Source: a phage. Taken from it: DNA of 64,000 nucleotides. Below the pieces are notes generated by a model. It saw only the letters and a list, made by a program, of their open reading frames with translations. It was not told the DNA's origin and made no database searches. How positions within the stretch are numbered: the first letter of the stretch is position 1; each line of letters starts with the position of its first letter. Of this stretch, positions 33,701-63,556 are shown piece after piece. The stretch lies in the sequence record PZ452609.1. One strand, 5' to 3'. Position numbers and translations under genes: made by a program.

Positions 33701-34810
33701 ATGACTACTAAAACTAAAGCACAGATTGACGCAGAAATTTACAAACTGGTTAAAGAAGGTAAGCTGACTAAAACAGCTATTGCACAGAAGTTCAATACTT
33801 CAACCCGTTCAGTTGGTCGTGCTGTAGAGCGTCATGAAGCAACCTTAAAAGGCAAGAAGAAGGCAACTTCTACACCAGCTACGAAGACTTTGAAACAATT
33901 TGCTAAGACTTTTAAAAAGAAAGCTGGCAAACCAGTTGAAAAGGTCGTTAAAGACACTGTACAGAAAGCTCCAGTAAATAAACTGCACGAAGCTATGCAG
34001 AAAGATGACAAGATTGAGTACATGATTACTGGTGATTCTGTAATTATGACTTATGGTTCAGAATCTGAAATTGTTGAGTCTACTCATCCGAACTATCAAG
34101 AGATTGTAGTTCATGTTGTGAAAGGTCAGTTCAAGAAAGCATTTGAACTGATGAACATTCGTAAGTCTATCGAAAACTTCACTCAGGGTGCTATCACAAT
34201 CAAAGGCGACAAGCTATTCTACGGTGCTGTTGAGATGCGTTCTACTCTGGTTGACCGTATTCTTCACATGATGAAAACTGGCGATAAAGGTTTTGAACGA
34301 CTTGTAATGTTCTTCGAAAAACTGATGGAAAACCCATCTAAAGATTCTGTAGAACAACTTTGGGGATTTGTATCTCACCTTGATGTTGAAATTGATGAAG
34401 AAGGCTACATCATTGGTTGGAAGAAAGTCTCTACTCGTGAAGGCAAGCTGGTTGACTCTCACACCTACAAAGTGCCTAATGATTTGGGTAACATTGTAGA
34501 AATGCCACGTTGGATGGTTGATAATAACCGTAACGTAACTTGCTCTCAAGGTCTTCATGTTGGTGCTTGGGATTATGTTCGTTGCTTCTCAGGTGATACA
34601 ATCCTGAAGGTTCGCGTACATCCACGAGATGTTGTATCTGTTCCAACTGATTACAATGATATGAAGATGCGTTCCTCTCGTTATGAAGTTGCAGCAATCG
34701 TTGATAATCAACGTAAAGTGCTGGAAGCATGGGACGGTAAGACTGAAGCTTTGCATGTCATCGTTGGCACTGCTGGTGAACTCATCTCTCAACGTAAACG
34801 TGAAATCTAA
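33701..34810 (+). CDS. rIIB: rIIB-like protein
   Basis: LFYGAVEMRSTLVDRIL, IVEMPRWMVD and VHPRDVVSVPTDYNDMKMRSSRYEV match T4 rIIB. Confidence 0.8.
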   Translation: MTTKTKAQIDAEIYKLVKEGKLTKTAIAQKFNTSTRSVGRAVERHEATLKGKKKATSTPATKTLKQFAKTFKKKAGKPVEKVVKDTVQKAPVNKLHEAMQKDDKIEYMITGDSVIMTYGSESEIVESTHPNYQEIVVHVVKGQFKKAFELMNIRKSIENFTQGAITIKGDKLFYGAVEMRSTLVDRILHMMKTGDKGFERLVMFFEKLMENPSKDSVEQLWGFVSHLDVEIDEEGYIIGWKKVSTREGKLVDSHTYKVPNDLGNIVEMPRWMVDNNRNVTCSQGLHVGAWDYVRCFSGDTILKVRVHPRDVVSVPTDYNDMKMRSSRYEVAAIVDNQRKVLEAWDGKTEALHVIVGTAGELISQRKREI

Positions 34811-52783: not shown

Positions 52784-52810
52784 AAAATAAAAAAGGCTCC
52801 CGAAGGAGCC
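52784..52810 (-). terminator. rho-independent terminator on the minus strand downstream of lysozyme
   Basis: Minus-strand reading ggctcc-ttcg-ggagcc then tttttt. Confidence 0.55.
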
Positions 52811-52820
52811 TATGAAGATA

Positions 52821-53285
52821 TTACTTTGGGTATACACTGTCAAGATAAATGTCAGCTTCCATTCTACGTCTGTTTTTCAGACCGTTTGAAGTGACCTTCT
52901 TACCTTTGACTGTAACCTTGTTCCACCACTGCATAGCTTCTGCACAACCTACCTTATTACCAGCATTGTGGCGCTTGATAAATGTGGAATCCTGCATAGC
53001 TGTGATACCGATGTTGTATGTTTCACTTACAAGTGCATCGAACTCATTCTGAGTAGTTGGAACCTTGATAGCTTTGTTCACTGCTGCAACAAACTTCTCA
53101 ACATCCGCGAGAAGATACTGTTCAGCTTGTTCAGCAGTAATTTTCATACCCATCTTAACAGGTTTTCCGTCAATACGGATTGTCCCATACCCGATTGTTG
53201 GGATTCCGGCAGAATCTTCGTAAGCCTCTAACTCCAGACCTTCGAAGAACTTAATAGCATCTAAACCTTTTCTTGAGAGTTGCAT
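52821..53285 (-). CDS. endolysin, T4-type lysozyme (GH24)
   Basis: N-terminal FEGLELEAYEDSAGIPTIGYG..T contains the catalytic E-(8 aa)-D-(5 aa)-T spacing of GH24 lysozymes. Confidence 0.75.
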   Translation of the reverse strand: MQLSRKGLDAIKFFEGLELEAYEDSAGIPTIGYGTIRIDGKPVKMGMKITAEQAEQYLLADVEKFVAAVNKAIKVPTTQNEFDALVSETYNIGITAMQDSTFIKRHNAGNKVGCAEAMQWWNKVTVKGKKVTSNGLKNRRRMEADIYLDSVYPK

Positions 53286-54166
53286 TACGCCTCCCCTGCT
53301 GGGTTAACTGTAACTGTTGCTGCATTGGATGTTACAGAGCCACCTGCACCAGTAACTACACAGGTGTAGCTTCCTGCATCAGCAGCGGTCGCACCTTCTT
53401 TGGTGTAAGTTGCAGTAGTTGCATCAAGGATGTCTTCCTCACCTTTCTTCCACTGGTAACCTGTCGCACCTGTTGCCACAACATTCAGCGTTAAGGTCTC
53501 ACCTTCATTGATTTCTTGATTGGTTGGCTGTTGAGTGATTACCGGAAGTGCGTTAACAGTAACCGTTGCAGGGCTAGAAGTGACAGAACCACCTGCACCT
53601 GTTACAACGCAAGTGTATGAACCTGCATCAGAAGGTTCTACAGACTGTTTTGTGTAGGTTGCAGATGTGGCGCTAGTGATATCCTCACCATCCTTTTTCC
53701 ATTGATATCCAGTGGCATTAGTTGCAATAACGCTTAGGGTAAGTGTACCACCTTCATTTACTGTTTGATTGGTTGGTTGCTGAGTGATTGATGGTGGCTT
53801 GATAGCGTCCTTCAACTTAGCATTCAACATTGAGAATGGTTTAACTCTTGCCAGCCATTCACAATAAACTGTATCAACGTCTTTACCATTGATAATTGCA
53901 TATTGTAAGTCCATGAAGAAGTCAGAAGTTCTCATTTGAGCACCAACACTGTAAAGCAACTCATCACTAAATGGGACTTTATAGTCTGGTTTATAGTCAA
54001 ACTTCTCAACTTCTGCAATATCAGCTTCAGGCCAATACGAGCTATAGGTAAGTGGTAAAATAGCCTCTTGATATGTTCTAAAATCATACCTCTTACCAGC
54101 CTTTACGTTTGCAATGAAGCCCTTCACAAACTCTTTGAAGTCTGGGTAAGTCTTTGCTTTAATCAT
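53285..54166 (-). CDS. protein with two tandem Ig-like domains fused to a paralog-type N-terminal domain
   Basis: Two about 88-aa repeats (PxITQQPTNQ..NEG.TLTL.V.ATGATGYQWKK..GSYTCVVTGAGGSVTS); N-terminal 120 aa resemble the adjacent 123-aa ORF. Confidence 0.55.
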   Translation of the reverse strand: MIKAKTYPDFKEFVKGFIANVKAGKRYDFRTYQEAILPLTYSSYWPEADIAEVEKFDYKPDYKVPFSDELLYSVGAQMRTSDFFMDLQYAIINGKDVDTVYCEWLARVKPFSMLNAKLKDAIKPPSITQQPTNQTVNEGGTLTLSVIATNATGYQWKKDGEDITSATSATYTKQSVEPSDAGSYTCVVTGAGGSVTSSPATVTVNALPVITQQPTNQEINEGETLTLNVVATGATGYQWKKGEEDILDATTATYTKEGATAADAGSYTCVVTGAGGSVTSNAATVTVNPAGEA

Positions 54167-54534
54167 TTCTTTTCAGCCTCTAAATGTGCGTTTAGCCTAA
54201 AATAACCTTTGTGATTCGGAGATACATCACCAACAACAATACCTTTAACCTTATAACCTTTACCAATTATATACTGGATATCCATAAGGAATCTTCCAAG
54301 ACCAACAATATGGAACATTGGATATAATAGATTCTCAGAGTCTGGAATATTGATTTCGGGTTTGTAGGTGCATTGTTCGATTGTTGGTGTAATATCTTCT
54401 TCAGGCCATTTACTGAGTCTCCATGTCAAAGGTGTTGGGATAACATCATTAAGGTTGTACCTTTCACCATTTTGCACGGAATTGATATAGGATTGTAGGA
54501 AGCAATAAAAGTCTTTTGCACTCTTAGCTTTCAT
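54163..54534 (-). CDS. paralog of the N-terminal domain of the Ig-like protein
   Basis: MKAKSAKDF..NGERYNL..FLMDIQYII..LNAHLE parallels MIKAKTYPDF..AGKRYDF..FFMDLQYAI..LNAKLK. Confidence 0.5.
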   Translation of the reverse strand: MKAKSAKDFYCFLQSYINSVQNGERYNLNDVIPTPLTWRLSKWPEEDITPTIEQCTYKPEINIPDSENLLYPMFHIVGLGRFLMDIQYIIGKGYKVKGIVVGDVSPNHKGYFRLNAHLEAEKK

Positions 54535-54581
54535 TAAATATCCTTATAAATAGTTAAAGGGGCATCAGCCCCTATTCACAC

Positions 54582-56244: not shown

Positions 56245-57660
56245 ATGAGCGAGTTATTTAAACATGCGCACCTTCATGCAGGTCGAACTGAAAATGGTGC
56301 TGTAAACCATACTTCATCAATGTCTGCTCTTGTAGACTTTTACAAAGCTGCTGGTTCAAGCCGTAGCAATGTAGAAATCTTACCAGACCTGTTCTACAAA
56401 GCTTTGCGTGAGGATGTTGATGTTGCAGTTCGTATTTTACTGCATATGCGAGATGTACGAGAAGGTATGGGTGAGCGTAAAGCCTTCAGAGCTGTTTTAC
56501 TTCAAGCGATTGAAGACAAAGTTTTAGAGTCTACGCAGGTTCTTCGCATTATGGATAAGATTGCAGAACTTGGTCGTTTTGATGACTTCAAAATCTTCGT
56601 AGGTACTCGTTTCGAGACAGATGCCTTCAAACATTTAGAAGCAGCATTACTAGACCCTGCAACAGCAGGTTTGGCGGCTAAGTGGTTACCACGAGTCAAA
56701 CCACGTCATAAGCAGTTTGTAAAACGTTTCTGCAAGTTTGCCAACTTGAGTGAGAAAGAGTACCGCACACTGTTGTCTGCACTATCTGATACAGTTGAGC
56801 AAAAAATCTCTGCTAATGAGTTTGGTAAGATTGACTACAGTAAGATTCCTTCACTTGCTGCTGCACGTTACCAAAAACTGTTTAACCGTAAAGATGGAGA
56901 GCGTTACAAAGCTTACATCGAGTCCTTATCAAAAGGTGAGACTAAGATTAACGCTGGTGCTGTTTACCCATACGATGTGATTAAATCTGTCAAGTATGGT
57001 AATGCAGATGTTGCTAATGAGCAGTGGAAAGCACTACCAAACTGGATGGCAGAAGGTGAAAACATCTTGTGTATGTCTGATGTATCAAGTTCAATGTCTT
57101 GGGTGAATTTTGGCTCCATTACTGCTCTGGATATTGGTGTATCACTTGCCTTGTATGTAGCAGAACGCAATACAGGTTGCTTTAAGAATGAGTTGATGGT
57201 TTATTCAACAAACCCTCACTTCATCGAACTGAGTGGTGATTTACGAAACCGTCATCGTCAGGTGATGCGACACGTTGAATATGGCTCAACTAACTTACAA
57301 GCAGCTTTTGACCGCATTCTTGAAACAGGTAAAAGAAACAACTTGACTCAGAAAGATATGCCAAGTAAGCTTATCATCTTCTCCGATATGGAGTTTAATC
57401 AGGTTGATGGAGCTAACGGTCGTACAAACTTTGAAGCAATTCAGAGTAAGTACAAAAAAGCTGGATATGAGATGCCACAACTGGTATTCTGGTACTTAGC
57501 AAACCGTAATGGTACTTGCGAAGTATCTGTTAAGGATAACGGTGTAGCAATGGTATCAGGGTTCTCTCCAGCCACTTTAAAAGCTCTGCTTGGTGGTGAG
57601 AAGTTTGACCCAATCAGTGTAATGCTCAAAGCAGTAATGATTGACCGTTATATCTGGTAA
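56245..57660 (+). CDS. Ro60-like protein (TROVE-like N-terminal region + von Willebrand A domain)
   Basis: C-terminal MIDAS-like DVSSSM..STNLQ..FSDMEF (vWA); N-terminal NGAVNHTSSMSALVDFYKAAGSS follows the Ro60 TROVE pattern G.V...T....L..F...GS; immediately upstream of the tRNA cluster. Confidence 0.5.
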   Translation: MSELFKHAHLHAGRTENGAVNHTSSMSALVDFYKAAGSSRSNVEILPDLFYKALREDVDVAVRILLHMRDVREGMGERKAFRAVLLQAIEDKVLESTQVLRIMDKIAELGRFDDFKIFVGTRFETDAFKHLEAALLDPATAGLAAKWLPRVKPRHKQFVKRFCKFANLSEKEYRTLLSALSDTVEQKISANEFGKIDYSKIPSLAAARYQKLFNRKDGERYKAYIESLSKGETKINAGAVYPYDVIKSVKYGNADVANEQWKALPNWMAEGENILCMSDVSSSMSWVNFGSITALDIGVSLALYVAERNTGCFKNELMVYSTNPHFIELSGDLRNRHRQVMRHVEYGSTNLQAAFDRILETGKRNNLTQKDMPSKLIIFSDMEFNQVDGANGRTNFEAIQSKYKKAGYEMPQLVFWYLANRNGTCEVSVKDNGVAMVSGFSPATLKALLGGEKFDPISVMLKAVMIDRYIW

Positions 57661-57825: not shown

Positions 57826-57905
57826 CTCCGTTTAGCTCAGTCTGGTTTAGCAGCACTTGCTTTGGGAGCAAGGGGTCGAGGGTTCAAATCCTTCAACGGA
57901 GACCA
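57826..57905 (+). tRNA. tRNA-Pro (anticodon TGG)
   Basis: Hand-folded cloverleaf, anticodon loop ttTGGga, T-loop ggttcaaatcc, 3' CCA encoded. Confidence 0.7.
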
Positions 57906-57912
57906 AATTAAT

Positions 57913-57990
57913 GTTCCAGTAGACAAAATGGTAAAGTCACCACTCTTTCAAAGTGGATATTTGAGGGTTCAAATCCCTTCTGGAACGCCA
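57913..57990 (+). tRNA. tRNA-Glu (anticodon TTC)
   Basis: Anticodon loop ctTTCaa; acceptor gttccag/ctggaac. Confidence 0.7.
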
Positions 57991-58080
57991 GTTTTGACAG
58001 AAGACCAATTACAGCAAACTTAATCTACTCATCTGAAAGTTAATCGGACAAAGAAGATATTTGGTCTGGTCATTAAGAAT

Positions 58081-58157
58081 TGCGGGTATAGAGAAAGGGC
58101 GTCTCACATGTCTCATTAGCATGGTATCGGCAGGTTCGACTCCTGCACCCGCCTCCA
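58081..58157 (+). tRNA. tRNA-Met (anticodon CAT); possible 1:72 mismatch (initiator-like) or register ambiguity
   Basis: Anticodon loop ctCATta; T-arm gcagg-ttcgact-cctgc. Confidence 0.6.
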
Positions 58158-58241
58158 AATTTACAGAAGACCGTTTACAGCAATATTTATTAAATTTTTA
58201 GCGGAAAAAATTGAAATATACGGTCTGGTAATACTAAACAT

Positions 58242-58318
58242 GGTTAGGAAGCACATAAGGTATGTGCGGTCGCCTGTTAAGCGAATGGCACAGGGTTCGA
58301 ATCCCTGACTAACCGCCA
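58242..58318 (+). tRNA. tRNA-Asn (anticodon GTT)
   Basis: Anticodon loop ctGTTaa. Confidence 0.65.
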
Positions 58319-58387
58319 AATTTAGGAGAGAAGCGATTGCTCACCGATTTGTAAGGTACAAGTCCTTAGCCTGAATAGAAATTAAAT

Positions 58388-58475
58388 GTGTCGTTATCCC
58401 GTAGATGGTAGCGGTGGGGACTGTAAATCCCTTGTCATTGAGACTCGGTAGGTTCGACTCCTACACGGCACACCA
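58388..58475 (+). tRNA. tRNA-Tyr (anticodon GTA), long variable arm
   Basis: Anticodon loop ctGTAaa; about 14-nt variable arm. Confidence 0.7.
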
Positions 58476-58480
58476 ATAAA

Positions 58481-58558
58481 GGTTATGTAGTTTAATTTGG
58501 TTAAAATACTCCCCTGTCACGGGAGATGATGAGGGTTCAAATCCCTTCGTAACCGCCA
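58481..58558 (+). tRNA. tRNA-Asp (anticodon GTC)
   Basis: Anticodon loop ctGTCac. Confidence 0.65.
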
Positions 58559-58705
58559 ATTTTGAGAGGGCTATTTAGCCCCTCCCTTAAAGGGTTCTTA
58601 CGAGTATTCTTTAAAGGAGCAGAAGACCAAATACAGCAAGTTATTTAAAATTTCAAGCCAATTTAATTTTGAAAAATTTAAAACTTGGTCTGGCTCAACA
58701 AATTT

Positions 58706-58838
58706 ACAGAAGACCGTTTACAGCAAAACTTAAACAATCTATTTCTCCGGTAAAGAAAAGGCGAAGGTTCGATTCCTTCACTCGGCAGATGTCGAGTTGG
58801 TGTAATGGTAGCACTTAAGATGATAAACAACGGTCTGG
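58706..58838 (+). ncRNA. permuted tRNA-like element, candidate Y RNA-like (YrlA-type) RNA
   Basis: Order is anticodon-like stem-loop, T-arm gaagg-ttcgatt-ccttc, acceptor 3' strand actcggc, short loop, acceptor 5' strand gtcgagt, D-arm tggtgtaatggtagcac; enclosed by an 8-bp helix agaccgtt/aacggtct. Confidence 0.45.
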
Positions 58839-58840
58839 TA

Positions 58841-58982
58841 ATTATCTTTGTAGATAAGTTATTAAGCTTACCTGTGAGTATGCGACCACAAAGGGTGAAA
58901 GGGTAAATTCTAGATTTAAACCCAAAAAGGCACATCGCTACAGACCTTAAGCAAGTCTGGGTAGCTTATCTACAAAGATAAT
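58841..58982. repeat. 19-bp perfect inverted repeat enclosing about 100 nt
   Basis: attatctttgtagataag at 58841 and cttatctacaaagataat at 58963. Confidence 0.7.
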
Positions 58983-58987
58983 TTAAT

Positions 58988-59063
58988 GGAAGTGTAGCAG
59001 AATGGTGATGCGGCAGACTTTTAATCTGACAGGCGATGGGTTCGAATCCCTCCACTTCTACCA
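58988..59063 (+). tRNA. tRNA-Lys (anticodon TTT)
   Basis: Anticodon loop ctTTTaa. Confidence 0.65.
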
Positions 59064-59141
59064 AATTCACCCTTAACTAAGAAACACCTGCGCGGCTGGA
59101 AACACCCACTCAACAGTTTCTCTAACTAGGGTACTTATTCT

Positions 59142-59218
59142 GGTTCAGTCGCAGATAAGGTAATGCAAGGGTCTCATAAGCCCTATGAATGTGGGTTCGA
59201 TTCCCATCTGAACCTCCA
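59142..59218 (+). tRNA. tRNA with CAT anticodon (Met or lysidine-type Ile2)
   Basis: Anticodon loop ctCATaa. Confidence 0.65.
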
Positions 59219-59219
59219 A

Positions 59220-59295
59220 GCTGGTATAGTTAAGAAGGTTATAACACTCCCCTGATAAGGGAACATCGGTGGTTCGATTCCACCTACCAGTACCA
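59220..59295 (+). tRNA. tRNA-Ile (anticodon GAT)
   Basis: Anticodon loop ctGATaa. Confidence 0.65.
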
Positions 59296-59310
59296 ATTTC
59301 AATAAAGTTG

Positions 59311-59339
59311 TTGACATTGAGATGTGACTACTTTATAGT
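59311..59339 (+). promoter_or_regulatory. strong sigma70-like promoter inside the tRNA cluster
   Basis: TTGACA, 17-bp spacer, TATAGT. Confidence 0.55.
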
Positions 59340-59570
59340 AACCTTAGTTTTCGTTGCGTAGCGTCTATTTTGCAAATTTAAAATAAATGCAAACGACAAT
59401 GTTTTTCTGGCAGTAGCTTGATAGGCTAAACACCAGTGAGGTCTTCCAATCCCTCATCAAAGAATTTGGCGTACTAGCCCACGGTATGATTAATAAGGTG
59501 GGCAACATTCTAAAGGGTATCCCTTATGGGGCTTGGCTTAAATGCAATGAGTACCCTTTAAAATGTTAAT

Positions 59571-59647
59571 GCACCCTTAGTTCAATTGGATAGAGCAACG
59601 GTCTTCTAAATCGTTAGTTACAGGTTCGAATCCTGTAGGGTGTGCCA
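59571..59647 (+). tRNA. tRNA-Arg (anticodon TCT)
   Basis: Anticodon loop ctTCTaa. Confidence 0.7.
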
Positions 59648-59795
59648 ATTAGTTAGCAGATTACTTAGACGACCTAAGCGGGTCTTCCTGTAGGGAGGTG
59701 GTCTGTATCTCATGTTTTCCAGAACATGTAAATAATCTGAGAAGGGGCTTTACAGTGTTGAGATAATACGGTAAGCTTCGAATTATAGTTTTAAT

Positions 59796-59866
59796 AGGGG
59801 TGAGCTATGGCAGCAATAGAGTCTCCAAAATTCTTGATTAGAGTTCGAATCTCTACACCCCTGCCA
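59796..59866 (+). tRNA. tRNA-Trp (anticodon CCA) with shortened D-arm
   Basis: Anticodon loop ctCCAaa; T-arm tagag-ttcgaat-ctcta; only about 71 nt. Confidence 0.5.
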
Positions 59867-59880
59867 GAAAAGGTGCTTGT

Positions 59881-60285
59881 ATGAAACTTTGTAGAAAATG
59901 TTCTCAAGAGAAGCCTTTAAGTTGCTTTCATAAAAGAGGGAATGGCTATCAGTCTGCTTGCAAAGATTGTAAAGCTAAGTACTCAGCAAAGAGATACAAA
60001 GAAGACCCTACTTATAAAGCAAAAAGGAAAGTTAGAGCAAAATATGACAAAAAGAGAAACAGAGAGTTCCTTAGTAGATATAAAAAGTTTTGCAAATGCA
60101 GAATATGTGGTGAATCCGAGCCAGTAGCTTTAGATTTTCATCACTTAGACCCTAAAGAGAAAGATTTTGCTCCAAGCAATCTTAAGACTTACTCTAGGGG
60201 AACTATTAAGCGTGAAGTTCGTAAGTGTGTTGTGCTTTGCTCAAACTGTCATAGGAAAGTTCATGCAGGACTGTTAAGTATTTAG
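59881..60285 (+). CDS. HNH endonuclease embedded in the tRNA cluster
   Basis: Cys-rich N-terminus plus FHHLDPKEKDF..CSNCHRKVH HNH motif. Confidence 0.7.
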   Translation: MKLCRKCSQEKPLSCFHKRGNGYQSACKDCKAKYSAKRYKEDPTYKAKRKVRAKYDKKRNREFLSRYKKFCKCRICGESEPVALDFHHLDPKEKDFAPSNLKTYSRGTIKREVRKCVVLCSNCHRKVHAGLLSI

Positions 60286-60298
60286 CAGTCTTATTAGG

Positions 60299-60388
60299 GG
60301 TAGGTAGCGGCTAATGGTAGCCAAACTGTCTTGAAAACAGTTGCCACTGTAGAGATACGGTGAGGGTTCGACTCCTTTACTTACCGCC
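60299..60388 (+). tRNA. tRNA-Ser (anticodon TGA), long variable arm
   Basis: Anticodon loop ctTGAaa; variable stem-loop gccactgtagagatacggt. Confidence 0.7.
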
Positions 60389-60642
60389 TAATAAGATTTA
60401 AAGCCAAGCTTCATTCGGATGTTGCTTTGGTATACCGCGTGTATTGTTGTACACACTGATAAAACACCTAGTAGGTGTCACGGAGAAGAGATAATATCAA
60501 GCTCTCCAAAGGTTCTAGTCACCGGATTAAACAAGACTATGCAAAGGCCTTTTTAGGTCTTTTAGAGGGCTTCTAAGGTCATTACAGCTTGTTGTGGAAC
60601 CTTGTTGCTTAGGTTCTTAGAAGTTCTCTAAAAAGGTTTAAT

Positions 60643-60721
60643 GGGAGATTGACGGCAACTTGGTAGACCTATCTCGCTTAGAACGAGATGCTTGAGGGTT
60701 CGAATCCCTTGTCTCCTACCA
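60643..60721 (+). tRNA. tRNA with TAG anticodon (Leu-type) but short variable arm
   Basis: Anticodon loop ctTAGaa; T-arm gaggg-ttcgaat-ccctt; irregular D-arm. Confidence 0.5.
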
Positions 60722-60728
60722 AATTAAT

Positions 60729-60804
60729 GCAGGTGTAGCAAAATGGTTATGCGGCTGACTCTTAATCAGTAAGACGATGGGTTCAATTCCCTCCACCTGT
60801 ACCA
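60729..60804 (+). tRNA. tRNA-Lys (anticodon CTT)
   Basis: Anticodon loop ctCTTaa. Confidence 0.65.
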
Positions 60805-60810
60805 AACAAT

Positions 60811-60886
60811 GGGGTCATAGTTTATATGGTTAAAATTCGAGTTTTGCAAACTTGGGAACTGAGTTCAATTCTCAGTGACTCCACCA
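60811..60886 (+). tRNA. tRNA-Ala (anticodon TGC)
   Basis: Anticodon loop ttTGCaa; G3:U70 wobble pair in acceptor stem. Confidence 0.75.
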
Positions 60887-60892
60887 ATTAGT

Positions 60893-60967
60893 GCATCCAT
60901 AGTTTAAACGGGAAAATTACAGTCTTCCAAACTGAGGTTGAGGGTTCGATTCCCTCTGGATGCTCCA
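60893..60967 (+). tRNA. tRNA-Gly (anticodon TCC)
   Basis: Anticodon loop ctTCCaa; discriminator U. Confidence 0.65.
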
Positions 60968-60974
60968 AATTAAT

Positions 60975-61050
60975 GCTCCTATCGTATAATTGGTTATTAC
61001 GGTTGCCTTGTAAGCAACTTATCAGGGTTCGAGTCCTTGTGGGAGCACCA
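60975..61050 (+). tRNA. tRNA-Thr (anticodon TGT)
   Basis: Anticodon loop ctTGTaa with perfect 5-bp anticodon stem. Confidence 0.7.
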
Positions 61051-61146
61051 ATTCAGAGGTCAAGTGAAAGACCGCTTTGAGTCAACTGAAGACCGTAACA
61101 AATTCCACGAAGTTGAGTTAGCGGCACAACTTCAGACCTCTTTCAT

Positions 61147-61221
61147 ACTCGCTTAGTTTATATGGTAAAACATCACCCTTACAAGATGAAGAAAAAGGTT
61201 CAAGTCCTTTAGTGAGTACCA
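61147..61221 (+). tRNA. tRNA-Val (anticodon TAC)
   Basis: Anticodon loop ctTACaa. Confidence 0.6.
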
Positions 61222-61222
61222 T

Positions 61223-61300
61223 GTTCCAGTATCCCAATTGGCAGAGGATGCAAGCTCAAACCTTGTATTAGTGACGGTTCGAATCCGTCTTGGAACACCA
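61223..61300 (+). tRNA. tRNA with CAA anticodon (Leu-type) but short variable arm
   Basis: Anticodon loop ctCAAac; T-arm gacgg-ttcgaat-ccgtc. Confidence 0.5.
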
Positions 61301-61305
61301 ATTTT

Positions 61306-61381
61306 GCAGGATTAGTTCAAATGGAAAGAGCAACAGTCTACGAAGCTGTTAATAGGGGTTCGAATCCCTTATCCTGCGCCA
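61306..61381 (+). tRNA. tRNA-Arg (anticodon ACG)
   Basis: Anticodon loop ctACGaa. Confidence 0.7.
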
Positions 61382-61398
61382 GATAAAAAGGTGATACT

Positions 61399-61641
61399 AT
61401 GCAAACATTAACAGTAGTTGAACATGAAAACTGTGAGAGTATTGAGTTTGTCAGGGTCATTGGTGTTGAACACCACATTTTCTTAAAAGTGGGATACTTA
61501 TGTGACCCCGCTAGAGTAGAAAGCTTTATACGTGATTGTTTTGGTGGTAGACATCTGAAGAGTGTTATTTTTGAGACAGTTTTACCAGAAGGTTTAGAAA
61601 CGAATAATAACATTTACCTCCTTACGAGGATTAGACAATGA
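61399..61641 (+). CDS. hypothetical protein (inside tRNA cluster)
   Basis: 80-aa ORF with AAGGTGA RBS. Confidence 0.45.
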   Translation: MQTLTVVEHENCESIEFVRVIGVEHHIFLKVGYLCDPARVESFIRDCFGGRHLKSVIFETVLPEGLETNNNIYLLTRIRQ

Positions 61642-62195
61642 GATACTTAAAGTATGCTTCATGGATTTTCTTAGCTTTGTTAGAGCCATTTGCAGCAATC
61701 TTAGCAGTTATCTTAGCACCTTTTGTAGTTCCATTCTACAGTGAGAAGAAAGGACACTTACCTTTCGGGTTCAGATGGATGGAGACTTATGACAACCCAA
61801 TTGATGGTGATGCAGGTCATATCAAACGATGGGCTAAGATTAGAAAGATTGGTAAGCTTGGTGTCTACATGCAGAGAGTTGGATGGCTCTGGAGAAACAA
61901 AGCTTATAACTTCTCTTACCATGTATTAGGAAGAGATGTAAAAGATGTTACTAAGTGGAAAGGTAATATCAACGTAAGTTCTAACCCTGAAGATAATCAG
62001 ACTGGTTATCTCCTAATGTGGAACAGTAATGCTTGGGGATTATTCGCTTTTGTGCCGTCAATCAAAATCTTTGGTAAACAATTTTACTGGAGAATTTATG
62101 TTGGGTGGAAACTTAAAAGTGTTGTCCCAGAAGAAAGAGCATTTTCAAGGGAAAGAGTTATGTTGGCATTCTTTATTCATCCACTAAGAAAGTAA
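61638..62195 (+). CDS. membrane protein (inside tRNA cluster)
   Basis: 185 aa with N-terminal TM segment. Confidence 0.45.
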   Translation: MRYLKYASWIFLALLEPFAAILAVILAPFVVPFYSEKKGHLPFGFRWMETYDNPIDGDAGHIKRWAKIRKIGKLGVYMQRVGWLWRNKAYNFSYHVLGRDVKDVTKWKGNINVSSNPEDNQTGYLLMWNSNAWGLFAFVPSIKIFGKQFYWRIYVGWKLKSVVPEERAFSRERVMLAFFIHPLRK

Positions 62196-62203
62196 AGATT
62201 TAA

Positions 62204-62279
62204 AGGGGATTAGTTTACAAGGTTAAAACCTCGGTCTTTGAAATCGAAGAAGTTGGTTCAATTCCAACATCCCCCGCCA
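62204..62279 (+). tRNA. tRNA-Gln (anticodon TTG)
   Basis: Anticodon loop ctTTGaa. Confidence 0.6.
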
Positions 62280-62281
62280 AT

Positions 62282-62360
62282 GCTCCATTACTCCAATTGG
62301 CAGAGAGGCCAGACTTAAAATCTGTGTTATGTATCGGTTCGAATCCGATATGGAGTACCA
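62282..62360 (+). tRNA. tRNA with TAA anticodon (Leu-type) but short variable arm
   Basis: Anticodon loop ctTAAaa; T-arm atcgg-ttcgaat-ccgat. Confidence 0.5.
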
Positions 62361-62365
62361 AATTT

Positions 62366-62441
62366 AGCGGTATAGCATAACTGGCAATGCAGCAGTCTCT
62401 GAAGCTGTCCTATTAAGGTTCAAATCCTTATGCCGCTGCCA
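62366..62441 (+). tRNA. tRNA-Gln (anticodon CTG)
   Basis: Anticodon loop ctCTGaa. Confidence 0.55.
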
Positions 62442-62472
62442 CTTCTAAGGATTCTTACGAGAGTCCTTAAAT

Positions 62473-62548
62473 GTGGCCTTATCATAAATGGTAATGACCC
62501 ATGCTGTGAACATGGTCTATACGGGTTCAAATCCCGTAGGTCACCCCA
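62473..62548 (+). tRNA. tRNA-His (anticodon GTG)
   Basis: Anticodon loop ctGTGaa with perfect anticodon stem. Confidence 0.7.
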
Positions 62549-62553
62549 ATTTA

Positions 62554-62630
62554 TAGTCCAAGTAGCTTATATGGTTAAAGCGCGTGTCTGAAAAACATGA
62601 GAAGAGGGTTCAAATCCCACTGGACTACCA
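62554..62630 (+). tRNA. tRNA-Phe (anticodon GAA), irregular acceptor register
   Basis: Anticodon loop ctGAAaa; D-stem gctt/aagc. Confidence 0.55.
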
Positions 62631-62646
62631 ATTTCAAAGGTGCTTA

Positions 62647-63381
62647 ATGAAAGAGATGACAGAACAAGGTAAGGAGATTTTCAATCTCTTAAAAACCGGT
62701 AAAGGGTTTTCTAACCCCCTTATTACTGGTGCAGCAGTTCTCGGTGGAACCGTAGCTGCCTCTACATCACTTGTAAGCTCTATTAGTTCTGTATCAGACC
62801 CTACAGTAAAGGATAAGATTGTTGCTGCTGGACTTACAACAGTTCTGCTTAACAGCTTTACCACGAGTCTGACAAGCACTACATCAACTACCAAAACACT
62901 AACAGATTACGGTCAAAAGTCCATTGATGAGTTTTCATCACGTATGCAGGTAGCAAAAGGTTACTCTAATGTTATGGGTGCAGCAGGTGAACAAGTTGGC
63001 TGTACACCATTTAGTGGTATTATGGGTGTTGCTACAGAGTATGGTCAAAAAGCTATTGATACGATTAACAGTGCACTAGATAGTGTTAATGGTGTGTTAA
63101 GTGACTTACAAGATGCTATTGACAAAGGTCTTGATACTATTTCTGATTTAGCTGAGCAAGCTGTTAGTAAGATTAATGAAGGTATTTCAAAAATTACAGC
63201 TTATGCAGATGAAGTTGTGCAGATGATTGAAGAAGAAGCTGCTCTTATTGCAGAGTACCTTAAAACGAATATCAATGGGTTCTTAGCAGGTATCTTACCA
63301 GACTGGTTTGATGATGCTTGTAAAACTGGTGTAATTGACACTATTGCAACACCAGAAATGAAGAACGCATTACAGAAATAA
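62647..63381 (+). CDS. hypothetical protein, Ser/Thr/Ala-rich
   Basis: Start moved to MKEMTEQ (AAAGGTG RBS) because the track start overlaps tRNA-Phe. Confidence 0.5.
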   Translation: MKEMTEQGKEIFNLLKTGKGFSNPLITGAAVLGGTVAASTSLVSSISSVSDPTVKDKIVAAGLTTVLLNSFTTSLTSTTSTTKTLTDYGQKSIDEFSSRMQVAKGYSNVMGAAGEQVGCTPFSGIMGVATEYGQKAIDTINSALDSVNGVLSDLQDAIDKGLDTISDLAEQAVSKINEGISKITAYADEVVQMIEEEAALIAEYLKTNINGFLAGILPDWFDDACKTGVIDTIATPEMKNALQK

Positions 63382-63383
63382 AT

Positions 63384-63476
63384 GGAAGATTAACCCTAAA
63401 AGGTAAGGGAGCAGTTTGCTAAACTGCCAGTAGCTGAGAAATCGGTGTACCAGTTCAAGTCTGGTATCTTCCTCCA
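63384..63476 (+). tRNA. tRNA-Ser (anticodon GCT), long variable arm
   Basis: Anticodon loop ttGCTaa; long variable stem-loop. Confidence 0.7.
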
Positions 63477-63480
63477 ATTT

Positions 63481-63556
63481 GAATCCGTGACAGAAACGGC
63501 TATGTGCCTGTCTGCAAAACAGGTTTATAAGGGTTCGAGTCCCTTCGGATTCTCCA
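63481..63556 (+). tRNA. tRNA-Cys (anticodon GCA)
   Basis: Anticodon loop ctGCAaa; discriminator U. Confidence 0.7.

Follow-up and report, generated by a model that had tools for sequence, protein, structure and literature searches.

Two adjacent genes on the minus strand of a Felixounavirus genome very probably form a pair in which the longer one (gene B) encodes a Hoc-like hexamer decoration protein of the Felix O1-type phages, and the shorter one (gene A) is an old duplicate carrying only its capsid-binding domain (CapBD). The main feature of gene B is already known, as it is a structurally characterised decoration protein, and its confirmation here chiefly corrects a widespread mis-annotation as 'tail protein'. 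The CapBD-only paralogue has so far gone unremarked; in nearly all phages of the Felix O1 type it lies, conserved and under selection, beside the decoration gene.

The pair lies in a window of 64,000 nt from sequence record PZ452609.1, and the 2.4-kb region considered here is 100% identical to the corresponding region of E. coli O157 typing phages 1 and 15. Gene A (54163..54534, minus strand) is an ORF of 123 aa (14.2 kDa), and gene B (53285..54166, minus strand) an ORF of 293 aa (31.5 kDa). The stop codon of the former and the start codon of the latter overlap in an ATGA (54163..54166, minus strand), an arrangement which, as read from the sequence, suggests translational coupling; overlaps of the same kind occur in Moogle, SUSP2, UAB_Phi87, Sf13, Felix O1, and a distant metagenomic relative. 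The endolysin gene (52821..53285, minus strand; Pfam Phage_lysozyme, E = 4.5e-41; phrog_7, endolysin) follows directly downstream, its ATG sharing one base with the stop codon of gene B, so that the pair does adjoin the endolysin, as the original prediction had stated. This is the last gene of an A-B-endolysin unit, closed by a terminator-like hairpin (AGGCTCC-TTCG-GGAGCCT followed by a T-run; 52794..52811, minus strand). At the other end, the 47-nt gap upstream of gene A contains a G+C-rich terminator-like hairpin (GGGGC-TGAT-GCCCC followed by TTT; 54559..54572, minus strand), which was not picked up by a simple terminator scan and is listed as a rho-independent terminator in Table 2 of the Felix O1 genome paper. 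A shared late-promoter motif was sought with the sequence between this hairpin and gene A (CTATTTATAAGG, one mismatch allowed), but none was recognised, since only two matches were obtained and the same number arose in 9 of 100 shuffles; a sigma-70 scan of the region likewise remained at background level.

The identity of gene B was established by comparison with solved structures. In a phmmer search against the PDB, residues 1-289 matched Hex-Dec of phage Bas63 (9ncf_S, E = 0) and gp20 of phage Sf14 (9c2d_S, E = 3.6e-191), and phrog_3995 was matched along the full length (E = 1e-169). Gene B is orthologous to both of these and to Felix O1 gp36. Its CapBD (aa 1-120; 53807..54166, minus strand) is 98% identical to that of Bas63 and 88% identical to that of Sf14. 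Both orthologues have been located on the capsid by cryo-EM, Bas63 Hex-Dec as PDB 9NCF chain S (PMC12609058) and Sf14 gp20 as chain S of PDB 9C2D and 9C3A (PMC11821841), where they bind as monomers at the centres of the pentamer-proximal hexamers of a T=9 capsid (PMC11821841; PMC12609058), by our own count one per asymmetric unit and about 60 per capsid. In Sf14, salt bridges link Arg79 and Arg107 to Asp221 in three subunits of the capsid protein (PMC11821841). Both arginines are present in the window protein and are invariant in an alignment of 15 gene B orthologues. The capsid protein gene lies outside the window, so the identical record of typing phage 1 served as the source of its sequence; the protein matched the Bas63 capsid protein (E = 2.8e-248) with a handful of substitutions, Asp221 being retained. 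Within the window, a 369-aa ORF at 33701-34810 was considered as a capsid protein and discarded, having no PDB match. The CapBD identities, the two arginines, and the conserved capsid Asp221 were together counted in favour of the identity of gene B with the solved decoration proteins, and no result of the analysis spoke against it.

Gene B orthologues have also been recovered from virions by mass spectrometry, namely Sf14 gp20 (PMC11821841) and the 31.6-kDa Felix O1 gp36 (14 peptides, 44% coverage). Together with the cryo-EM localisation, this upholds the proposal that the Ig-like domains decorate the virion surface and refines it on two points: the decoration is on the head, not the tail, and the N-terminal region shared by the two genes is the capsid-binding domain. 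That gene B might instead encode a tail protein is scarcely credible, even though this is how it is labelled in RefSeq ('tail protein'), in GenBank AF320576 ('HK97 major tail subunit'), in PHROG 3995 ('tail'), and in the 2010 Felix O1 paper ('major tail protein'), and even though three PHROG 'major tail protein' families (phrog_158, phrog_853, and phrog_3575) match it. These matches cover the Ig region only, being confined to the Ig-like repeats, a module that occurs promiscuously in structural proteins of phages, whereas the N-terminal domain of the 98%- and 88%-identical orthologues was modelled in capsid hexamer centres by two independent cryo-EM studies. The database label 'tail protein' is wrong.

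Downstream of the CapBD, gene B carries two Ig-like domains, the first at aa 125-207 (53546..53794, minus strand) and the second at aa 208-290 (53297..53545, minus strand). The repeats scored well above the Pfam curated gathering thresholds, given here in brackets, for Ig_3 (83.4 bits [30]), Ig_2 (67.3 bits [27]), and I-set (64.6 bits [23.7]), with two matching stretches each for Ig_3 (PF13927) and I-set (PF07679). AlphaFold2 modelled them as beta-sandwiches (pLDDT about 94-96), and a Foldseek search with this model retrieved the tandem I-set domains of Robo, titin, and MuSK at probability 1.00. The Ig-like character proposed from the sequence pattern is thus confirmed, with the YQWKK and GSYTCVVTGAGGSVTS motifs found in both units. 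Each unit has a single cysteine, which precludes a canonical intradomain disulfide, and the Ig part of the protein is acidic (pI 4.2, net charge about -9).

The two appended repeats are indeed in tandem, as described in the original prediction, but their period is 249 nt, i.e., 83 aa instead of about 88, and the term 'near-identical' overstated their similarity: they share 61 of 83 residues (73%) and 170 of 249 nucleotides (68%), with 46 of the 79 nucleotide differences falling at third codon positions. A repeat search returned blocks of 70-76% identity spaced 249 nt apart, and the 249-nt repeat was not reported by Tandem Repeats Finder at a minimum score of 30. Judged from this divergence, the repeat pair stems from an old duplication, and selection acts on both copies.

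Variation between one and four Ig domains among orthologues has already been published; the gene B of the window has two units, that of Sf14 three, and that of Bas63 four. For the comparison of copy number, megablast matches were sampled at even spacing and the lengths of their aligned stretches were used, as a word-indexed search of proteins with the CapBD yielded one-Ig (210-aa) forms almost exclusively and was unfit for copy-number statistics. The two-domain allele corresponds to a three-domain allele from which exactly one 252-nt unit is missing, and the crossover falls within a repeat. Against the closest three-domain allele, that of phage LMP33, 862 of 879 nt matched across one 252-nt gap with a single breakpoint, at nt 537-542 of the gene (aa 180-181), the left part matching at 533 of 537 and the right part at 324 of 337 positions. 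The inferred crossover zone for this one-unit difference (53624..53629, minus strand) falls within the DAGSYTCVV codons. Relative to three-domain alleles, Ig unit 1 is a chimera, of Ig1 type in its N-terminal two thirds and of Ig2 type in its C-terminal third, and Ig unit 2 is of the 'last domain' type, its counterpart being Ig3 in three-domain alleles and Ig4 in Bas63.

Gaps were also found for the alleles of Felix O1 (249 nt, crossover at aa 232-235) and JH2 (501 nt, crossover at aa 127). From the alignments, these two alleles appear to have lost units at crossover points other than that of the window allele, a deletion being indistinguishable from the reciprocal duplication. The number of Ig units would change by in-register homologous recombination between repeats, and the two-unit allele of the window may have arisen from a three-unit allele by removal of one 252-nt unit, or the two may be related by the reciprocal duplication. 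The search for recombination between the repeats in related phages, suggested along with the original prediction, was thus positive in the LMP33 comparison, where one 252-nt unit and an in-repeat crossover were found. The crossover points indicate that the published variation of one to four Ig domains arises by repeated in-register recombination, which matters to users of these proteins as display scaffolds.

Gene A is homologous to the N-terminus of gene B, as had been proposed: the two share 37% identity over 101 aa (BLASTP, E = 1e-16), and each also matches the PHROG family of the other (phrog_4463 and phrog_3995). Gene A itself matches phrog_4463, labelled 'unknown function' (E = 7e-79), and had no match to a Pfam or NCBIfam family, NCBIfam giving none for its neighbours either. 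It has no Ig domain, the protein ending at aa 123. Its AlphaFold2 model, of moderate confidence (mean pLDDT 75), matched 9c2d_S and 9ncf_S in Foldseek (TM 0.65-0.67, probability 1.00), and no other PDB entry was matched with E < 0.001. Gene A is an old duplicate of the decoration gene in which nothing but the CapBD fold was retained. The CapBD comprises two lobes, described in the Bas63 paper as related by a pseudo-two-fold; in a local alignment of one half against the other, both A and B scored below the shuffle mean.

The counterparts of gene A are Felix O1 gp37 (identified through its coordinates and its place in the gene order, not through an accession), Sf14 gp21, and bas63_0125; the gene is intact in both Bas63 and Sf14, and neither structure paper mentions an adjacent CapBD-only paralogue (PMC12609058; PMC11821841). 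The A-B order is kept in Felixounavirus, Mooglevirus, Suspvirus, and a distant 87-kb metagenomic contig, and the frame is intact, at 122-124 aa, in about 233 of 253 phage records; an orthologue with only 44% identity is still intact. The dN/dS ratio of gene A ranged from 0.08 to 0.25 (dS up to 1.9), indicating sustained purifying selection, versus 0.01-0.06 for the CapBD of gene B, and its non-synonymous rate was about two- to twenty-fold that of the latter domain, depending on the pair compared. The capsid-contacting residues differ: in all full-length gene A orthologues of the alignment, the Arg79 position is occupied by glycine within a GLG motif, and Arg107 is in most cases replaced by Asn, Gln, or His. 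Charge gave no functional hint, since pI varies from 5.2 to 9.1 among orthologues and net charge varies as well. In phages REP11 and Z31 gene A is a pseudogene, with ATG changed to ATA and an internal deletion of about 220 nt, and the same remnant pattern recurs in about 19 of the 253 records (about 7%), from which it follows that the gene is dispensable.

On these grounds we tentatively infer that gene A encodes a dispensable accessory protein which acts inside the infected cell, in head assembly or in the loading of Hex-Dec, by way of contacts, weak or transient, to capsid hexamers or Hex-Dec itself, and which is no stable component of the virion. Somewhat doubtful is the alternative that the CapBD fold has acquired a new function directed at a non-capsid target, such as a host protein, or serves to mislead, as a decoy, a host defence which senses the decoration protein. 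The loss of the capsid-contact arginines, the raised non-synonymous rate, and the lack of reports of the gene A product in virions would all fit such a function; however, the conserved overlap with gene B and the shared late timing, ORFs 36 and 37 of Felix O1 both being maximally transcribed at 60 min (Felix O1 genome paper), argue for a role linked to gene B.

It is unlikely that gene A encodes a second, Ig-less decoration protein, plugging the 20 hexamers on the true three-fold axes, which B does not use, or competing with B for the same sites. Several observations would agree with it, including the fold shared with the solved CapBDs, the late expression together with B, the overlap of the A stop with the B start, the three-fold hexamers left empty by B orthologues (PMC12609058; PMC11821841), and the precedent of some T4-like phages which encode two Hoc paralogues sharing one capsid-binding domain (PMC10385173). 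Such a protein could have been missed so far if it were small, low-copy, loosely bound, or averaged out. Against this, no density was seen on the other hexamers of Bas63 (PMC12609058), a phage which, like Sf14, carries an intact gene A, although symmetry averaging would smear a monomer on a three-fold axis. Felix O1 gp37 is missing from the list of 17 virion proteins of that phage, which comes from one shotgun dataset with only coverage of at least 25% reported and which does include proteins of 9.7-13.7 kDa; the gene A product is also absent from the Sf14 table of assigned structural proteins (PMC11821841) and does not appear in the published cryo-EM maps. Finally, the arginines anchoring B to Asp221 are not conserved in A.

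A related and similarly improbable proposal sees in gene A a functional 'bare plug', which would compete with or gate the Ig-bearing protein at hexamer centres, for instance as a transient cap during head assembly or at low occupancy on the 20 three-fold hexamers. If true, gene A would set the number of display fibres per virion, a previously undescribed regulation of capsid decoration. That gene A is a decaying, functionless remnant of the tandem duplication is very improbable, since the pseudogenes of REP11, Z31, and the other records with their pattern are outweighed by a frame that stays intact at constant length in three genera (about 233 of 253 records) as well as in the 44%-identical relative, and by the low dN/dS at dS up to 1.9.

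As for the decoration protein itself, its acidic I-set Ig-like domains would project outward from the head. By analogy with T4 Hoc, whose functions are described in PMC10385173, they may form a flexible fibre that adheres weakly to surfaces or mucus and keeps virions dispersed, with the protein probably dispensable for capsid stability. The Ig domains are unresolved in both cryo-EM maps, of Bas63 and of Sf14 (PMC12609058; PMC11821841).

Among known decoration systems, T5 pb10 (PDB 5LXK and 8ZVI) resembles gene B in sequence only within the Ig domain (8zvi_a residues 81-159; 5lxk_A), and no pb10 chain appeared among the best 50 Foldseek matches of the gene A model; membership of gene B in the pb10 family was rejected, as it does not have a pb10-type capsid-binding domain at its N-terminus. 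The likeness to T4 Hoc is broader. Like gene B, Hoc is a dispensable monomer at hexamer centres with a string of acidic Ig-like domains projecting from the head; the number of its Ig domains varies among relatives, and some phages encode two paralogues with a common capsid-binding domain, as in the A/B pair. However, the capsid-binding domain of Hoc is C-terminal and that of gene B N-terminal, and the two domains have no sequence similarity and, according to the Bas63 paper, a distinct topology (PMC12609058). The PHROG Hoc-like families phrog_2973 and phrog_4069 match only aa 121-291 of gene B, i.e., the Ig region, and no Hoc chain was found among the best 50 Foldseek matches of the gene A model. 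With the matches thus restricted and the domain order reversed, gene B was rejected as a member of the Hoc family and is regarded as a Hoc analogue. Its closest equivalents are Bas63 Hex-Dec and Sf14 gp20, which occupy the same locus, beside the endolysin and not within the structural module, and which likewise carry I-set Ig-like repeats after a CapBD with Arg79 and Arg107; only the number of Ig units differs, and in the window the first of these is the Ig1/Ig2 chimera.

Gene B, a 293-aa ORF on the minus strand (53285..54166), almost certainly encodes an orthologue of a capsid decoration protein that is already known and has a solved structure. In a phmmer search of all PDB chains, its product matched chain S of 9NCF with E=0 and chain S of 9C2D and 9C3A with E=3.6e-191, corresponding to the "Hex-Dec" protein of phage Bas63 (PMC12609058) and gp20 of Shigella phage Sf14 (PMC11821841), respectively. 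Within a T=9 capsid, both proteins are placed as monomers in the middle of pentamer-proximal (facet-edge) hexamers, bound through a CapBD (capsid-binding domain) of ~118 residues at the N-terminus and carrying flexible Ig-like domains that are unresolved by cryo-EM (PMC12609058, PMC11821841). The CapBD of B (aa 1-120) shares 98% identity with its Bas63 counterpart and 88% with the Sf14 one. In Sf14 gp20, salt bridges connect Arg79 and Arg107 with Asp221 in three subunits of the capsid protein (PMC11821841); both arginines are present in B and invariant in an alignment of 15 orthologues. The capsid protein gene lies outside the window, and the comparison was made with the record of E. coli O157 typing phage 1, whose capsid protein matches that of Bas63 (E=2.8e-248), differs from it by no more than a few substitutions and retains Asp221. 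Sf14 gp20 was found by virion mass spectrometry (PMC11821841), as was the orthologous Felix O1 gp36 (31.6 kDa, 14 peptides, 44% coverage), the calculated mass of B being 31.5 kDa. The original prediction of display on the virion surface is thus borne out by these orthologues, the location being the capsid rather than the tail and the domain common to genes A and B being the capsid anchor. As the main feature, B is already known; the modest additions made here are the mapping of crossovers among its repeats and an unreported CapBD-only paralogue, gene A.

Downstream of the CapBD, B carries two Ig-like units at aa 125-207 (53546-53794, minus) and aa 208-290 (53297-53545, minus). They form a real tandem repeat, as first proposed, with units of 83 aa rather than about 88, and they are clearly diverged rather than near-identical (73% identity in protein and 68% in DNA, with 79 nucleotide differences, 46 of them at third codon positions). 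The 249-nt period was picked up by a repeat search and went unreported by Tandem Repeats Finder. The repeats are Ig-like: Pfam assigned two stretches each to Ig_3 (83.4 bits), Ig_2 (67.3) and I-set (64.6), all exceeding the curated cut-offs; AlphaFold2 modelled aa 125-290 as two beta-sandwiches (pLDDT ~94-96), the CapBD being poorly modelled in the same run; and Foldseek retrieved tandem I-set domains of Robo, titin and MuSK (probability 1.00). Each unit holds a single Cys, which precludes a canonical disulfide.

Felixounavirus Hex-Dec proteins were already known to have 1-4 predicted Ig domains (PMC12609058). Among 53 evenly spaced records covering the whole query, one, two, three and four units were inferred from the lengths of the aligned stretches in 7, 24, 18 and 4 records, respectively; copy numbers checked on ORFs were one in JH2, two in six phages, three in four phages and four in Bas63. 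When the proteins were split into units, unit 1 of the window proved chimeric, its first two thirds being of Ig1 type and its last third (TGAGGSVTSSPATVTVNAL) of Ig2 type. In nucleotide sequence, each of three short alleles is set apart from a longer one by an integral number of units, and the crossover points are distinct. The two-unit window allele differs from the three-unit LMP33 allele by 252 nt (862/879 nt match), with the crossover at gene nt 537-542 (aa 180-181, in DAGSYTCVV; window about 53624-53629) and matches of 533/537 to its left and 324/337 to its right. The two-unit Felix O1 allele differs from LMP33 by 249 nt, with the crossover at aa 232-235, between units 2 and 3, and the one-unit JH2 allele differs from the three-unit UAB_Phi87 allele by 501 nt, with the crossover at aa 127. 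Judged from the alignments, these differences would represent independent in-register recombination events between repeats, with either loss or gain of units; a test for such recombination in related isolates had been proposed at the outset. In Shigella phage Z31 (L003, 2305-3070), a stop codon shortly after the start of Ig unit 1 cuts B short, leaving a 134-aa CapBD-only product; barring sequencing error, this would be a natural zero-Ig allele.

Gene A, a 123-aa ORF (54163..54534, minus), is homologous to the N-terminus of B, as had been noticed, with 37% identity over the first ~100 residues of B (BLASTP E=1e-16) and each protein also matching the other's PHROG family. A belongs to phrog_4463 ("unknown function"), with no family in Pfam or NCBIfam. 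Among PDB structures, the two solved CapBDs were the only significant matches of its AlphaFold2 model (pLDDT 75; TM 0.65-0.67, probability 1.00), the next-best matches having E ~1. A profile of A and CapBD sequences found only 13 proteins among 1.84 billion representatives, indicating a very small fold family. Its distant members (P0101, P0102, P0104, P0105, P0106) carry Big_2-like Ig domains, another Ig type or a lysine-rich tail C-terminal to the CapBD. These display-type modules suggest, at the level of domain organisation, that CapBD plus display domain is the older arrangement, and their variety gives the anchor the appearance of a display platform with exchangeable modules.

The order 196-aa ORF, A, B, endolysin is constant in Felixounavirus, Mooglevirus and Suspvirus and also holds in a metagenomic contig of 87 kb, in which A has just 44% identity; A corresponds to gp21 in Sf14 (Mooglevirus) and bas63_0125 in Bas63. 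The adjacency to the endolysin, noticed at the outset, was evident, the endolysin being a 154-aa phage lysozyme ORF (PF00959, E=4.5e-41; 52821..53285, minus) whose start has one base in common with the B stop (TAATG). The A stop and B start overlap (ATGA), and this overlap is kept across relatives. The end of the unit holding the three genes is marked by a strong hairpin that resembles a terminator (52794-52811, minus; 7 base pairs, 5 G-C, then a T-run), 10 nt past the endolysin stop. A second hairpin, GGGGC-TGAT-GCCCC followed by TTT (54559-54572, minus), lies between the 196-aa ORF and A and is listed as a rho-independent terminator in the Felix O1 paper. RT-PCR in Felix O1 placed the maxima of ORFs 36 and 37 at 60 min, along with morphogenesis genes, and those of ORFs 35 (lysin) and 38 at 25 min. 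Given the middle-period peak of ORF 38 and the late peaks of ORFs 36 and 37, late transcription may start within the 25 nt preceding A; a promoter motif search near the hairpin and A found no recurring motif.

E. coli O157 typing phages 1 and 15 share the 2.4-kb region with 100% identity, and many Felixounavirus genomes match it at 87-97%, with 242 matching phage records (including Felix O1, wV8 and Bas63). Farther along, tRNA positions deviate from those of the typing phage 1 record, by up to ~590 nt, so the window does not correspond to that record over its full length. B occupies the non-structural genome arm, with the tRNA array between it and the head genes, as in Bas63. The array (57826-63556) comprises 27 tRNA genes by ARAGORN, 24 of which reach the Rfam gathering score; a 71-nt tRNA-Trp call (59796-59866), below the Rfam threshold, is unannotated in typing phage 1. 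Directly upstream, a 471-aa ORF (56245-57660, plus), labelled "RNA-binding protein" or DUF2828 in relatives, had no NCBIfam match.

Gene A is an old, selected yet dispensable CapBD-only duplicate. It is full-length in ~233/253 phage records, and its pairwise dN/dS (0.08-0.25, against 0.01-0.06 for the CapBD of B) indicates purifying selection, weaker than that on the latter domain. Its dispensability follows from REP11 and Z31, in which it is a pseudogene (ATG to ATA, frameshifts, a ~220-nt internal deletion), a pattern found in ~19/253 records. We tentatively favour a role inside the cell, as an accessory in head assembly or in the loading of Hex-Dec, with the protein not retained in virions: Felix O1 gp37, to which A is assigned by gene order, is expressed late and is absent from the Felix O1 list of 17 virion proteins, though proteins of 9.7-13.7 kDa are included. 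A new function with no relation to the capsid is somewhat less probable; the position of Arg79 is Gly in all aligned full-length A orthologues and that of Arg107 mostly Asn, Gln or His, set against the conserved overlap with B and the late timing common to both genes. It is rather improbable that A is a second decoration protein, missed so far: the Sf14 and Bas63 cryo-EM papers do not mention it (PMC11821841, PMC12609058), the other hexamers of Bas63 are without density (PMC12609058), and the virion list lacks it. That A is a functionless relic, as the pseudogenes might imply, is very hard to reconcile with its purifying selection.

Public records describe B as "tail protein" (RefSeq NC_041979; PHROG 3995) or "HK97 major tail subunit" (AF320576), and the Felix O1 paper as "major tail protein"; these labels derive from Ig-domain similarity alone and are contradicted by the cryo-EM structures. 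Only a few records (EF202P1, CHB7, Silverhawkium) use "decoration protein". Both structural papers liken the decoration protein to T4 Hoc (PMC12609058, PMC11821841). The Ig part of B has a strongly acidic composition (pI 4.2, charge about -9), as does the Hoc fibre, and by analogy with Hoc its biological role would be in adhesion, dispersion or environmental sensing.
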